In this document: positions 40,601-52,600 of the stretch, piece by piece
Numbering within the stretch: the stretch's first letter is position 1
Layout: every line of letters starts with the position of its first letter
Sequence record: CP128686.1
From: a plasmid
Reading direction: 5' to 3' (one strand)
Length of the DNA: 64,000 nucleotides
Position numbers: made by a program

Positions 40601-43600
40601 ATAAATAAGGAAGAACCTTTACTGTTTCCACTAACGTAGCTGGCTTTTCCTGTATCGCTGTGCAGCGCACCGGCAAGATAGTACTTTTCATTCTGGCCCA
40701 GCGTGACTACGCGCTTTTGCTGCCCGCGCAGATGCCAGTCAGCACCAATTTTGGGATTGAGGTGAATATCCACTTCATCTTCGTAAAATACGGGGTTTTC
40801 CGCACTGCATTCGCCAGTGCTTCATGGATAGCGACCATTTTTTCTTCTTTGTGTGGGGCACGGATACGCAGTGTCGGCGCTGCTCTCCGCCATACCAGTC
40901 CGGCAGCAGGTAACCATCGCCGGATGGTTGAAGCATGTAGCGGACAACCGATAACATCACGGACTTTTATCGCCAGCAGTTCGGTGCTCCAGCGGGAACG
41001 CTGATAACTGAAATCGCCGGGAGAATGCTTAACAAGCTCAAGCAGCAATGCGCAAATATGTTCGAACGGCCAGCGCCTCCCACGTCCTGACGGCAATGAT
41101 TTCAGGCCTTCAGTACCAGACAGCGTGAACCAGTTAATCCAGCGACCAATCGATGAGCGGGCACAGCAGAGCGTTCTGGCAACATGACTGACGGTGTCAC
41201 CATGATGCAGCATCAGCATGGCGGTGAGCCGCCGGGCGAGGTTTTTGTCCTTTGTTTTATTGATATTTTTATCCATCAGGCGTCACTGGCTCTTGCCCGC
41301 ATATCAGCTGCATTATAGTACGGCATCAGGTAATTCCTTGATGGTTGTTATCCGCGATATCAGACCTGACGTCTATTTATTGGGCTGAATTTCCCGGATG
41401 CTGCTTAAATCACGGTGACGTGAACTCCAGACGCCGCTTCCGACCGCGGCACCGGTGGATTTTCTGAAGCGCAGGCCGCACTCACTGACCCACTGGGAAC
41501 TGGTTTCCCGCAGCCTGACTAAACGGGGTTGGTAGCATTCAGTAACGGTCCCGGTGTGAGTCATCTTCTTCTGCTTTTTCGTTTCATGGACATGGGTGAC
41601 CTTATCTGACGAACCATTCACCGCCCGGTCACGGTATTCAGTAGGGATCTCCATAGACAGGCGCAGAGGCAGGGCCCTGCCCTGCCCCGGGACGGGTAAC
41701 AGACTGTCCGCCGTGGCTTTCAGCCAGCCATACAGCTTATGACCATTACCCGGAATGCCATCAAGCGTCAGTTTACGCGCGGTGAAGCTCCCGTCCTGCC
41801 TTCGGACCTTCCGCAGGAAGGTACCCAGAGGCTTACCAGACTCAACCGGCTCCGCCACAATCTAGTCATACCCTGGAAACTGATCGAGCATCAGGTCGAT
41901 ATACTCCCAGTCGAGGACGACAATGACGTGGCCATGAATGTCAGGGCCGTCATTCCACTGTATGGCAATGACATAAGGGAACAGCATGTCGTCGTGAACT
42001 CAGAGATACTGAACTAGGCTCTAGCTGGCCAGTTCACAACTGCCGGCCGGAAATGGCTTCAGCCAGTCACGCCAGAGGGAAGGTACCGGCTCACCGGACC
42101 GTTCTCCGGCGGCCAGCTCCAGCGCCCGACGGAAGGCCTTCACACGGGCCCAGGTTTCCGCATTCATTTCTTTGCCTTCCCATCAGCACGCGCTAGGATC
42201 AGCAGGCTGAACGCGTCACGAATAACAACTCACTAGATACCATAGCCACCTGACTGCACAGGTAAATCAATGAATTCTGGCGGCCCGGCCAGTACCTTTG
42301 TCAGATCCAGCGGTAGATGTATGACATTGGTCATTCACCGGCTAGGTTCACAAAGGTGATCTGGTGTGGGAAAGCGGAGCGTTTTACCAGAAAATCAAAT
42401 ATAGTTGACAGGCAGGATATTACATATGGTCAACTCATGTGATCTGTATCTTATTATACGAAAAATGGAACTCATCTTAATATGTTGATATAAAATCACT
42501 TTATATTGAAAACCTCATATTATGGCACACTGCCTGCGGTAGATAGTGCTAACGAAAAGCAGCCACTGATGATTGGCTCCCATATTGACACCGTTGTAAA
42601 CGCCGGCGCTTTCGATGGTTGTTACGGTGTCCTGTCCGGCCTGGCTGTCGTCAGGGCTTTCAGAAAAGCCGGGATCAAACCTTCCCGCCCGATTACTGTC
42701 GGCGCATTCACAAACGAAGAGGGTATCCGTTATCAACCCGATATGATGGGATCGCTCGTCTATGCAGGGGGGATCTCGCTGAAGAAAATCCTGGACACTG
42801 TCGGCACTGATGGCACACGTCTGGGTGATGAGCTGCAGCGTATTGGCTATGCGGGAGACCTGGAGCCCGGCTCGATCGTCCCTCATGAATACATTGAACT
42901 GCACATCGAACAGGGACCTGTTCTTGAAGCCGAAGGGATCCAGATCGGTGCTGTCGAAAATCTTCAGGGAATTTCCTGGCAGGAAATCACCATCAAAGGC
43001 ACGGCAAACCATGCAGGCACCACGCCGACACGGCTACCCGTTCTTACGATCCGGCAGTCTAGGAAATGCTTGAAAAACGGATGCGTGTTATCTGTAATTC
43101 TGTTTGCGCAATGCACGAAGCAGAATGTGAATTCATTTACACACATGAGTTTTCACCTACAGTCGATCATCCGCGGGAAACTGCATATGCAATTGACGCA
43201 GCGGTTCGCGTATTCGGCGAAAAAAATGTGGATTCCACGGTGACGTGTTCATACTCAAATCTCCTGCAATATGGGAGATTTGAGTATGGTTGTACCTTGT
43301 GAGCGAACAGCGGGAATTCGCAAATGTTTCACATCTGATCAAGGCATTACTTAAAGGATGCTGTGGTAGCCAACGGGGAGCAGGTCAAAGCAATTACAAA
43401 TTGGTTTGAATTGCAACATCATGCAAATAAATGTTATGTTATCACATTACTTAAGTGGCATATACAGTGACATGAACAACAATCTTCCTTATCCAATACC
43501 TGTGCTTGATGTTAAAAGCGTCAGCATTTCTACGGGCCATTCTGCTCTGGTTAGCGATGTCAGCTTTCGGCTCCAACAAGGCGAGCGGGTCTGTATTATC

Positions 43601-49600: not shown

Positions 49601-52600
49601 GAATGCCTTATCTGGAGCGCGCCTATTGGGTCGTTCTGGCACCTGCAGTCGCCCTTGCCGTTTTGTCGGTGATGGGCGTGAGTCTGGCCGGTCTGACGGG
49701 TCAAAAAAAGTAAAAGCGTTCCATACGTTGCTATCACTATGACTGCAATGTCGAACACCTTTAAACACGTGATTCTGTTACCAGGATTAAGTCGAGATTA
49801 TTTTGAAATAACTCTGCACACTTTTTCACCGAAATTATGCTGGTGCCCATCGTCGGGCGAAGTTAGACTGAAATGTTGAGTTAAACAAGGGGGCAAAAAT
49901 GAAAGTGTTAAGTATTGTCGGGGCAACGCTGTTGGTCACGTCATTCCATGCTGCCGCATTTGTTTCTGTATCGCCGGTGCCTGCGGGGCAAAATGCGAAC
50001 GTCAGTCCTGCTGCAAACAACGGACACGCTATTCCTTCTGAAGCGGTCAATGCTGACATAACAAAGATCATTCCGATCGCTGGCTGTCACTGCGCTTTCT
50101 GCAACTCGTTGCGCGCCGCTAACCTTTGACCCCTTCTTCAGGCCTGGGTTTATCAACATTCAGGCCCTGAGTCCGCTCCTGACGTGCCGTAGGCCATGAG
50201 TATGATGGCCTGCTCCTGCCTTTCACCTGTACCCCACCTTACCGCCCAGTCGTTTATTTCACCCTTTACGGGCTGACTTGCCGCGAAAAAGCTTCCCGTA
50301 CATTCCATTAACACATCCCACGCAGCGTAGATTCAAAGAGAACTCTGTAGGAGATGTTAACAATGCCATATAAGAAAGCCTCTGTATTTGAAGATCCCCG
50401 TTTACCTGTCCCCGCTCTCTGATTTCACCCAGTCGGCGGATAAAGACTGCACGCGCAAGGGCATTTCGGGCCTCACCTTTATTCAACCCTGCCTGTACGC
50501 GTCGACGCAGGGAAGGCTCCCGGAACCAGTAATGGCCGTGAAGCGACTGTGCAATGCGCTGTTTGGCAGAACGGGCAGCCAGTGGCTGATTGTGGAAGTT
50601 TTTGGGGAGAAAGGGCGACAGCACCGCAGTACGGACAGTAACCCGGAGGCCGTTGAAAAGATGGTCAGGCATGTGATAAACCCAGTAACACCTGATAATC
50701 TGGAGGATACAGGATGAAAAAATATAAAGTTGTCACTGCAGGACTTCTCCTGGCAGGCCTTATTGCTACCGGTATCACCTGGGCAGCAGGCCAGTCCAAC
50801 GGAGAGAAGAATGCGCAATGGCGAAAACCCCTGAACGAGAGCATCACGCTTCGGTTCGGTGAAAAAGCCTATAGCGTGGATTTGTATGATAATCCCACGA
50901 CTCACGACCTGCTAAAAAAGCTGCCCCTTAACGTTCAGGCCACGGATTACCCGGGGTATGACGAGAAAGTGTTGCGCTTAGCAACACCATTATCGATGGA
51001 AAATGCGCCGCGGGGTGATGAACCAGAAATTCCTGAAGTGGGCTACTATGCTCCCGGGCAGTGGATTGCTGTTTACTTCGGTCCTATTGGTTACTGGTCT
51101 GGTAAGGTGCCGCTTGGCCGTATTCATGCTTCAGTCGATGAAATCAGTGCCATTCCGGAGAATACGCCAGTCACCATTGAGAAAGCGAAATGACCACTGA
51201 CAGCATACTGCTTAACGACGGCTATTATATGCCCCGGCCAGGTTGTGGCCTCTGGCTGATTGACAACAGGGACGTTGACTCTCTGATCCGACAGGCATTG
51301 AAAGCAGGCTTCCGGCACTTTGACACGGCCCAGGCATATTTTAATGAAGATGGGGTAGGCCGTGCGTTACGGTATACCGAAGTACCGCGTGAGCAGTTGT
51401 TTATTACTTCTAAAATTCGCGGCAGGGATATGGGCTATGCACGTACGCTTGTCTCCTTTAACGAAACACTGGAGCGTCTGGGCGTCGAATACCTTGAGCT
51501 TTTTCTCATTCACTGGCCGATACCCGCAAAAAATTTGTATGTGGAAACCTGGGAAGCATCAATCGAGCTGGAGGCCAGCGGTCTGATTCGTTCCATTGGT
51601 GTGTCCAATTTCACCTGCCAGCATATAGAGCGGCTTATAGAGGATACTGGTGTGGTGCCGGCTGTGAATCAGCTTGAACTGCATCCGCATTTTCAACAGT
51701 GTGATGTCCGTGATTATCATCATGAAGCCGGAATAGCCATTCAGAGTTACAGCCCTTTTGGTAGTAATGGTGCAGCAGTTTTACGCAATGCGGTGGTAAT
51801 GGTTTTGGCAAGACGACATGACCATTCACCGGCTCAGATTGTACTTCGCTGGCATCTTCAACAAGGACTCACGCCTCTGCCCAGAACAACCAATGGTGCA
51901 CGATTTAGTGAAAACGTTGATGTCTGGGATTTTGAACTTTCAGAGGAAGAAATGAAACTTCTGGCGAGCCTCAACACACGAACCGGTAATACTCAACCCC
52001 TGCCCGATGCTATGAATATGTCGTTCTGATGCTGAATGTATTACCACCGCTGAAGTAGTTTGTAGAGGGGCGCTAATGTCATTGGCATTACGTCCGCTCT
52101 TCGTTCACAGCGGACCGTCATGCCAGCTCAAAAAACAGGCTTAACGTAGGATATTTTCCGTTTTCCAAGCGGACCCCTTACTATAAATTTTAAGCGATCA
52201 CCTGACCTTCCCTGCTGCGGACTAAGTTCTAAGTGAAGAAATCCTTGTGATCTTTTTATCTACTGTCAGACGAACCACGATAATGCGTGTCGATGAGAAA
52301 AAAAACCACCTTATAAAGGTGGTTTTATATAGCTACGGAAAATTGTTTAGATCAGGAAATCTTCGAGAGTTTTTCCTGAATCCAACTGAGCTTTAATTGG
52401 TGCCGGGGTACGACCCTGACCTGTCCAAGTTTTTTGCTCACCAGCTTCGTCTATATAAGCATATTTCGCCGGACGAGGTTCACGCTTTTTTCGTACTTTA
52501 ATGTTAACGGCCGCGTCCATCAGTTCATTCGGATCTATACCATCAGCGATCATCATTTCCCGGTACTGAGAGAGTTTTTCTAAACGCTCTCGATTAGCTG

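Follow-up and report, generated by a model that had tools for sequence, protein, structure and literature searches.

Among the described systems that come closest to the one reported here, Cnt of Staphylococcus aureus (CntABCDF with CntE; staphylopine; Opp1) combines in one operon a Zur-repressed ATP-binding cassette (ABC) importer of the peptide/nickel type and an exporter of the major facilitator superfamily (MFS); it belongs to the same clade and imports zinc. NikABCDE of Escherichia coli and the related NikA (Opp5A) of S. aureus, which goes with Opp2BCDF, have short ATPases, and S. aureus NikA binds nickel as a histidine chelate. ZnuABC and ZniCBA of Klebsiella pneumoniae are members of the Zur regulon, with presumed zinc uptake in starvation (PMC10797113), but they are chromosomal and of another ABC class: their substrate-binding proteins (SBPs), of cluster A-I, bind free Zn2+ via histidines, and no MFS protein accompanies them. 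Here, a five-gene operon is described from a stretch of 64,000 nucleotides (nt) of the plasmid with sequence record CP128686.1, in the following called the window. It encodes two ABC ATPases (D and E), an MFS protein, an SBP which is a lipoprotein, and a fused permease; this gene order, read from the sequence in an earlier note, was confirmed by Pfam and NCBIfam profiles and by RefSeq. The operon possesses a conserved Zur operator and is located in an island of zinc-starvation genes, and an ortholog is expressed in a Zur-dependent manner. We regard it, with a probability of roughly 60%, as a Zur-repressed, self-contained importer of zinc chelates from the Nik/Cnt branch, together with an exporter of the ligand; zinc as the cargo, its chelate form, and the direction and role of the MFS protein are what we infer. 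By analogy, the operon would function like Cnt; in sequence it is most similar to Staphylococcus Nik, and it belongs to neither Nik, Cnt nor Opp/Dpp.

The Zur-like box which the earlier note had seen upstream of the operon proved to be a real operator. The string ATAAATGTTATGTTATCACATTA, located at 43427-43449, has two mismatches to the gammaproteobacterial Zur consensus AAATGTTATnnTATAACATTT, to which 100 shuffles of the window yielded no match at up to 3 mismatches. The box ends 23 nt upstream of the start codon of ATPase D; it lies upstream of the gene and not inside it, since the real start codon is at 43472, as given by RefSeq, and not at 43406, where the longest open reading frame (ORF) begins. 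A genome scan with the SBP yielded 532 loci, with relatives of 62-91% identity, and 80 of these loci were fetched. Of 60 proteobacterial orthologous loci, 59 have the Zur core (TGTTATnnTATAACA, at most 2 mismatches) in the 100 nt that precede the gene for ATPase D; in the remainder of these loci, it was met at a background rate of 0.003 per interval of that size. Promoter regions from 12 genera (the Klebsiella plasmid, Kluyvera, Pantoea, Citrobacter, Pectobacterium, Rahnella, Serratia, Vibrio, Marinomonas, Vreelandella, Kushneria and Pseudoroseomonas) were aligned; mean column identity was 37%, and the invariant columns were all inside the Zur box, which was the sole conserved block. The box overlaps a candidate -10 element, TATGTT (43435-43440), which is accompanied by a conserved candidate -35 element, TTGCAA (43411-43416), both read from the sequence; a scan with the sigma-70 consensus called no promoter at the box. 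No Fur operator was found at the operon promoter.

Expression was reported for Pectobacterium odoriferum BCS7, where RNA sequencing of a delta-zur mutant showed the genes RS07445-RS07465 to be increased with log2 fold changes of 5.7-7.3, i.e., 53- to 152-fold (PMC10298282, Table S3). They are BCS7_RS07445 (permease, 1779 nt), RS07450 (SBP, 1512 nt), RS07455 (MFS, up 97-fold), RS07460 (ATPase, 837 nt) and RS07465 (ATPase), and all five rank near the top, in the company of the L31/L36 paralogs and of two further metal ABC systems (PMC10298282); importers of the ZnuABC/ZniCBA type are co-induced with them. The discussion in that study covers znuABC only, and the five-gene operon is neither named nor discussed. 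Gene lengths and the gaps of 37 nt and 84 nt match the P. odoriferum locus in our sample (L018), whose SBP is about 80% identical to that of the plasmid and whose gene order, fused permease and position of the Zur box are alike. The P. odoriferum operon differs in being chromosomal, in having a small gene for a CxCxxC protein (see below) split off by amn and provided with its own Zur box, and in an AztD-like gene alongside.

The context in the window points in the same direction. The Zur core occurs in four places of the 64 kb, with 8 strand-matches versus 0.9 expected, and all are in promoters of zinc-starvation genes (Table 1). A regulator of the Fur family (39414-39914) in this island is Zur-like (84.5 bits with the Zur model, cut-off 167), and its divergent layout with hisI-zigA, including the Zur boxes, is the same in K. 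variicola. In the latter the order is unrearranged: the ABC operon, a small ORF, the Zur-like regulator, hisI, zigA, the FeoB-like gene and the oxidoreductase, continuing with cysS, a Fur-like gene, cobW, dksA and folE2, and the four promoters with Zur boxes correspond to those of the window. Kluyvera and Pantoea likewise have the operon adjoining the zinc island; the order on the plasmid results from rearrangement of the island by insertion sequence (IS) elements. For the paralog cluster of pLVPK, regulation by Zur was noted earlier (Haas et al. 2009, PMC2770081); the transporter is not mentioned there. Phylogenetic footprint, window context, ancestral linkage and expression of the ortholog are four independent lines, and they are strong evidence that the box is a genuine, conserved Zur operator and the operon a part of the zinc-starvation regulon. 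With the expression data from P. odoriferum, we consider control of the operon by Zur to be very probable.

The gammaproteobacterial Zur box is missing from orthologous operons of Actinobacteria, where the promoters have other conserved palindromes in the same place: CGACAACGATTGTCG, perfect in four Rhodococcus loci (L077, position 8340; L080, 8414; L081, 8416; L082, 1344), AGAAAACGATTGTCA in Kribbella (L078, 9893) and AATGATTATTGATAnCAT in Arthrobacter (upstream regions of L061, L066 and L073). As a lead, they resemble the actinobacterial Zur box, TGAAAATGATTTTCA; the palindromes are probably Zur-box variants.

The class of the transporter was assessed with profile hidden Markov models (HMMs). 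SBP_bac_5, two BPD_transp_1 stretches and two ABC_tran ATPases are present in one operon, all with Pfam matches above the gathering scores. NCBIfam scores of the SBP were 193 bits for Opp5A_nikA, 94 for nickel_nikA, 90 for GsiB, 62.5 for DppA, 61.6 for opine_bind_CntA and 26.7 for OppA. ATPase D scored 187 bits with NikD, 183 with CntD and 182 with CntF, and the best match of ATPase E was NikE (186 bits). The permease has an N-terminal half (residues 27-314) which is NikB/Opp1B-like (Opp1B 156, Opp2B 143 bits) and a C-terminal half (367-585) which is NikC/Opp2C-like (Opp2C 131 bits); the fusion is conserved in 78 of 80 loci, with a median length of 592 amino acids. All ABC parts thus score highest on models of the Staphylococcus Nik/Cnt metal-chelate importers or of E. 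coli Nik, although far under the curated cut-offs: nickel_nikA 94 vs 393, Opp5A_nikA 193 vs 600, nikD 187 vs 319, nikE 174 vs 333 and nikB 133 vs 447 bits for the Nik equivalogs, 61.6 vs 800 for opine_bind_CntA, and 26.7 vs 947 and 62.5 vs 1005 for OppA and DppA, respectively. Because of these scores the transporter is, as judged from sequence, a separate family, which by its SBP is nearest to Staphylococcus NikA (Opp5A). The OppD/F C-terminal domain (oligo_HPY) reached 25 bits in ATPase D, where the cut-off is 27.1, and was not detected in ATPase E; both ATPases are of NikD/E size (269 and 277 amino acids). The OppD profile has 318 positions, and the alignments end at about position 254. The ABC parts thus resemble importers of the Nik/Cnt metal-chelate type rather than those of the Opp/Dpp peptide type. 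The earlier note had named firm clustering of the SBP with di- and oligopeptide binders as the outcome that would speak against a metal system; by HMM score the SBP does not cluster in this way.

Similarity to the nickel systems is greatest overall, including the short ATPases. The PDB sequences closest to the SBP are 3t66 (a "nickel" SBP of B. halodurans) and S. aureus NikA (4ofj), with 5u4o next, followed by AccA, YliB and E. coli NikA. An AlphaFold2 model of the SBP (mean predicted local distance difference test score, 85.9) gave 3t66, 5u4o and S. aureus NikA as top Foldseek matches, which confirms the family-5 fold and the nearest neighbours seen by sequence. An importer for nickel or cobalt chelates under Zur control, which in zinc starvation would furnish an alternative metal or the metal for zinc-independent paralogs, could be deduced from the facts that nickel systems are the best HMM matches of all five ABC domains (NikD, NikE, Opp5A_nikA, Opp1B/Opp2B/Opp2C) and that the SBPs of known structure closest to that of the operon carry annotations as nickel binders. 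We consider it improbable: the nickel equivalog cut-offs are far from being reached, as given above; the operon stands beside zinc-starvation genes in every genome with informative context; Cnt, of the same clade, is a zinc importer; and near the operon there is no NikR operator (GTATGA-N16-TCATAC), the sole match in the window at up to 2 mismatches being at 59941, which is 16 kb away and at chance level. Besides the Zur operator in place of that of NikR and the zinc island, the additional MFS protein and the fused permease distinguish the operon from NikABCDE.

The layout had been compared in the earlier note to that of Cnt-type and nickel/zinc uptake systems, and this comparison holds for the Nik/Cnt-like ABC parts, the efflux type of the MFS protein and the Zur box. 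CntD and CntF are among the best models for ATPase D, and Opp1B, the CntB-equivalent, is the best one for the N-terminal half of the permease. The system is not Cnt, however: the SBP is not of the CntA type, the permeases are fused, the MFS gene is placed inside the ABC genes, there is no Fur box, and neither the plasmid operon nor the related loci have linked cntK, cntL or cntM. The statement of the earlier note that CntL/CntM-like genes (nicotianamine-synthase-like, opine dehydrogenase) do not occur in the window agrees with the colinear plasmid record, in which none are annotated in the 64-kb region. Likewise, neither these nor other genes for chelator biosynthesis were found among the called genes around the operon in Pectobacterium, Serratia, Enterobacter hormaechei and K. 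variicola, and the flanking ORFs of three actinomycete loci contained cellulases, FolD, WXG100-like and WD40 proteins only, with no cluster for an ethylenediaminedisuccinate-like or other chelator. A survey of opine-zincophore clusters does not mention Klebsiella, Pectobacterium or Enterobacter (PMC7438024). Distinguishing features of the operon are the lack of linked biosynthesis genes, the fused permease, the exporter gene between those for ATPase and SBP, and a lipoprotein SBP in Gram-negative hosts. A TonB-dependent receptor next to the operon of Serratia was considered; it is FoxA-like, has no Zur box of its own, and is unrelated.

Missing linkage to chelator genes is also what would be expected if the operon imported an organic nutrient or zinc buffer that contains no metal (histidine-rich peptides, glutathione, a small anionic compound, a thiol or an amino acid, for instance), which would be of indirect help in zinc starvation, with the MFS protein as an unrelated efflux pump. 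Ligands of family-5 SBPs include peptides, glutathione, opines and sugars; the top structural matches comprise GsiB/YliB and DppA, and in the unrearranged island the operon adjoins hisI and zigA. Yet the scores for DppA (62 bits), OppA (27) and GsiB (90) are low when compared to 193 for the Staphylococcus NikA type, the ATPases have no C-terminal domain as in Opp/Dpp, and a 50- to 150-fold induction, comparable to that of the regulon's other zinc importers, fits better with metal uptake; this explanation is therefore rather improbable.

The MFS protein had its best matches with efflux pumps (MdtH, 135 bits, then the Tet family), and its motif A, GGALTDRFGGR, and an antiporter-like motif C, GSVIGPLLGALL, could be read from the sequence; this reading of motifs leans on what is generally known of MFS antiporters. 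A homolog is present in about 42 of the 80 loci, between the genes for ATPase E and SBP in Enterobacterales and in Arthrobacter (45% identity), and downstream of the permease gene in Rhodococcus. Because the coupling recurs across phyla, this argues for a functional tie of the MFS protein to the importer. As in Cnt, a dedicated exporter and Zur control would occur together, but the protein is not recognised as a CntE equivalog, and its role as exporter of the ligand is a tentative assignment, with somewhat less than an even chance of being correct.

A small gene follows the operon within the shared homology block. It encodes a secreted protein of 76 amino acids which ends in GCHCAFCNSLRAANL, and in E. 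hormaechei, Kluyvera and K. variicola its homologs immediately follow the gene for the permease. Divergent versions of 79 amino acids (...GCGCPFCTQLR) are found near the operon in Pectobacterium and Samsonia; the Pectobacterium gene has its own canonical Zur box, and in P. odoriferum (RS07435) it was increased 21-fold in the delta-zur mutant (PMC10298282). The family comprises proteins of 76-80 amino acids with a conserved C-terminal G-C-x-C-x-F-C-x-x-L-R (L018, 15314-15553; L090, 10001-10231; L086, 13508-13738); no Pfam or NCBIfam family was matched, and every known homolog is labelled "hypothetical". The interval 49713-49899 contained no terminator-like site, and the small gene, which is associated with the operon, is possibly co-transcribed with it; the product may be a periplasmic zinc-binding peptide. 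It could even be imagined that the CxCxxC protein, or its Cys-rich C-terminal fragment, is a ribosomally encoded peptide zincophore which binds zinc outside the cytoplasm and is re-imported by the Opp/Nik-type transporter. Linkage of the gene to the operon in Klebsiella, Kluyvera, Enterobacter and Pantoea, a distance of less than 2 kb in Pectobacterium with the Zur control mentioned, the conservation of just the Cys-rich C-terminus and purifying selection (ratio of nonsynonymous to synonymous substitution rates, dN/dS, 0.04-0.12) are in favour of this notion. If true, a hypervirulence plasmid would carry a gene-encoded zinc scavenger which needs no biosynthetic pathway. In most loci, however (including Rahnella, Serratia, genera of the Halomonas group and Actinobacteria), a motif search yielded no such ORF within 10 kb, the small gene of Cedecea stands alone with neither importer nor Zur box nearby, the mature peptide, with about 55 residues, is large for an SBP of this class, and no processing enzyme is linked; we regard the notion as highly unlikely.

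The plasmid itself could be assigned from its relatives. The region 42300-50000 is 100% identical to Klebsiella virulence plasmids received by E. coli transconjugants, and the region 43300-49800 was found at 99% identity or more in 483 PLSDB plasmids, 463 of them from Klebsiella. Because of these near-identical regions, mostly in Klebsiella plasmids, the window is part of a K. pneumoniae hypervirulence plasmid of the pLVPK/pK2044 type. Such a plasmid could carry the operon merely as non-functional cargo of a decaying island, with no role in Klebsiella. The neighbouring genes are indeed broken (cysS frameshifted, thrS and hemB fragments, zigA interrupted by an IS), IS5 is present inside the matched region in a few plasmids, and some 480 identical copies reflect recent clonal spread and are not evidence of selection. 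On the other hand, comparison to K. variicola and E. hormaechei shows no damage to or shortening of the five genes and the operator, and at least 80% of the region is covered in 479 of the 483 plasmids; mere cargo is thus very improbable. Purifying selection was apparent for all six genes, i.e., the five and the small ORF (dN/dS 0.04-0.27 vs K. variicola and E. hormaechei), ATPase D having values of 0.10-0.27 and orthologs in 78 of 80 loci. The order D-E-(MFS)-A-BC with the fused permease is kept in 78 of 80 loci, including those of Actinobacteria.

Several observations weigh against the zinc-chelate importer as preferred here. The only member of the family with expression data is the P. odoriferum operon, and Zur control in Klebsiella is a prediction. 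No named family has a cut-off that the SBP reaches, its sequence has no His-rich or obvious metal-binding segment, and Foldseek TM-scores of 0.70-0.81 for nickel-chelate, glutathione and dipeptide binders alike do not separate the ligand classes. Genes for chelator biosynthesis are unlinked in all annotated loci. The MFS gene is absent from about half of the orthologous loci, and the protein is therefore not essential to transport. The surrounding island is partly decayed on this plasmid, and a few plasmids have IS5 annotated within the matched region. Finally, loss of ZnuA and ZniA already cripples growth of a hypervirulent strain of K. pneumoniae in zinc-limited medium (PMC10797113); if that strain carries the plasmid, the operon therefore cannot substitute for them without an external ligand.

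The preferred zinc-chelate importer could operate as follows. With sufficient zinc, zinc-loaded Zur would occupy the palindrome overlapping the promoter and keep the operon off; the repressor could be the Zur protein of the host, the Zur-like protein of the island, or both. Zinc starvation, e.g., by calprotectin in the host, would lead to strong derepression. The lipoprotein SBP would then capture a small organic zinc complex (perhaps a metallophore or a zinc-amino-acid complex) in the periplasm and hand it to the fused NikBC-like permease, driven by the NikD/E-like ATPases, and the co-transcribed MFS protein of the efflux type would expel free ligand. This ligand could be a chelator or metabolite made elsewhere in the cell, or a foreign apo-ligand left after release of zinc in the cytoplasm; if it is not made by the cell, the system would be an example of zinc-chelate piracy.

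Hypervirulent K. pneumoniae must gain zinc against calprotectin, and only the chromosomal ZnuABC and ZniCBA have been studied in this regard; the virulence plasmid is noted for its siderophores and its regulators of the capsule, and not in connection with zinc. It carries an intact, uncharacterised importer with an exporter and a Zur operator, within a zinc-starvation island. In the literature on pLVPK/pK2044 in connection with zinc or Zur, and on the protein accessions, no study of the operon was found. Should import of zinc chelates be correct, this would be a third route for zinc in hypervirulent strains and a candidate factor for fitness or virulence. Members of the transporter family occur in hundreds of species, with many plant-associated Enterobacterales and many Actinobacteria of the soil among them.

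Table 1. Positions of the operon genes, Zur boxes and adjoining features in the window (aa, amino acids; TM, transmembrane segments).
Feature	Position	Strand	Remarks	Basis
Zur box	30167		before dksA2-folE2	core-pattern scan
Zur box CGTTATGTTATAACG	33453-33467		before flavin oxidoreductase and FeoB-like gene	core-pattern scan
Two overlapping Zur boxes	39289-39308	.	cores 39289 and 39294; divergent promoter, hisI-zigA / Zur-like regulator	
M20/hydantoinase-type amidohydrolase	42521-43036	+	pseudogene fragment	profile match, RefSeq
Zur operator AAATGTTATGTTATCACATTA	43429-43449	.	core TGTTATGTTATCACA at 43432-43446	consensus match, positional conservation
Core of this operator	43432		before ABC operon	core-pattern scan
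ABC ATPase D	43472-44281	+	NikD/CntD-like, 269 aa, WP_011154569	Pfam/NCBIfam, RefSeq
ABC ATPase E	44278-45111	+	NikE-like, 277 aa	Pfam/NCBIfam; dN/dS 0.14-0.15
MFS protein	45138-46382	+	12 TM, efflux type (DHA1, MdtH/Tet-like)	NCBIfam, sequence motifs
SBP	46393-47919	+	family-5 substrate-binding lipoprotein, 508 aa	Pfam SBP_bac_5, E=1.7e-60
Fused permease	47938-49713	+	591 aa	two BPD_transp_1 stretches (Pfam), NCBIfam per half
Small secreted protein	49899-50129	+	76 aa, signal peptide, C-terminal GCHCAFCNSLR	in shared homology block

Six ORFs of at least 200 amino acids occupy 42506-49713 on the plus strand. The RefSeq annotation of an identical plasmid agrees with the gene calls, and the operon genes proper span 43472-49713, with the gene for ATPase E overlapping that for ATPase D by 4 nt. 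Homology to E. hormaechei, Kluyvera and Pantoea begins at 43380-43394 and ends at 49697-49708 (at 50329 in E. hormaechei). The decayed M20 amidohydrolase next door, which the earlier note had mentioned as lying beside the transporter genes, is a real fragment: homology spans only profile positions 77-238 of 417, and RefSeq gives a pseudogene missing both ends. As a part of the operon it was rejected; because it is outside the shared homology block and no M20 gene occurs near the operon in related loci, it is a neighbour by accident.

The SBP has the lipobox LLLTG-C23, and C23 is invariant across 35 homologs. Inspection of residues 18-37 showed that the lipidated Cys23 is followed by invariant Phe-Asn, and not by Asp. 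According to the +2 sorting rule of Enterobacterales, a lipoprotein without Asp at this position is predicted to go to the outer membrane, which would be odd for an SBP that must dock on a permease in the inner membrane. Residues 22-34 have low confidence in the model and are probably a flexible tether.

The island of zinc paralogs extends over about 21600-39914 and is partly decayed. It contains hemB fragments, pyrC-like, a thrS fragment, AmiA-like, PTPS/QueD-like, a hexapeptide-repeat protein (gamma carbonic anhydrase-like), folE2, dksA2, cobW, a frameshifted cysS, zigA and hisI, and two regulators of the Fur family, one of them Zur-like and the other of unclear type. In the window, zigA is interrupted by an IS5-family element (36703-37757; DDE transposase ORF 36734-37702; zigA part 37743-38831), and the homology shared with Kluyvera and Pantoea is cut at 36702/37758; in the reference plasmid (L001), zigA is intact with 406 amino acids. 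Directly after the Zur box at 33453-33467 come the genes for a YpdA-like flavin oxidoreductase (33487-34617) and for a FeoB-like protein (34628-36277), which has GTPase and Gate domains. Pair and box are also found in K. variicola (L090); this pair could possibly be a Zur-regulated, uncharacterised cation importer of the FeoB type.

The AztD-like neighbour of the operon in P. odoriferum (L018, 15623-17026, minus strand) is a secreted protein of 467 amino acids with 120 bits for AztD (cut-off 400) and the mature N-terminus HDHE. The gene, at a distance of 2 kb from the operon, has a perfect Zur box to itself (16978-16992), and as BCS7_RS07430 it was increased 320-fold in the delta-zur mutant (PMC10298282). 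A relationship to the 478-residue neighbour of the small gene in Cedecea was considered, and the two proteins are unrelated.

In E. hormaechei (L086, 6987-15387), a copy of the operon with 93% identity, the small ORF and a cobW/zigA-like gene are situated beside a TraI relaxase gene, which suggests that the module also moves on conjugative elements beyond Klebsiella.

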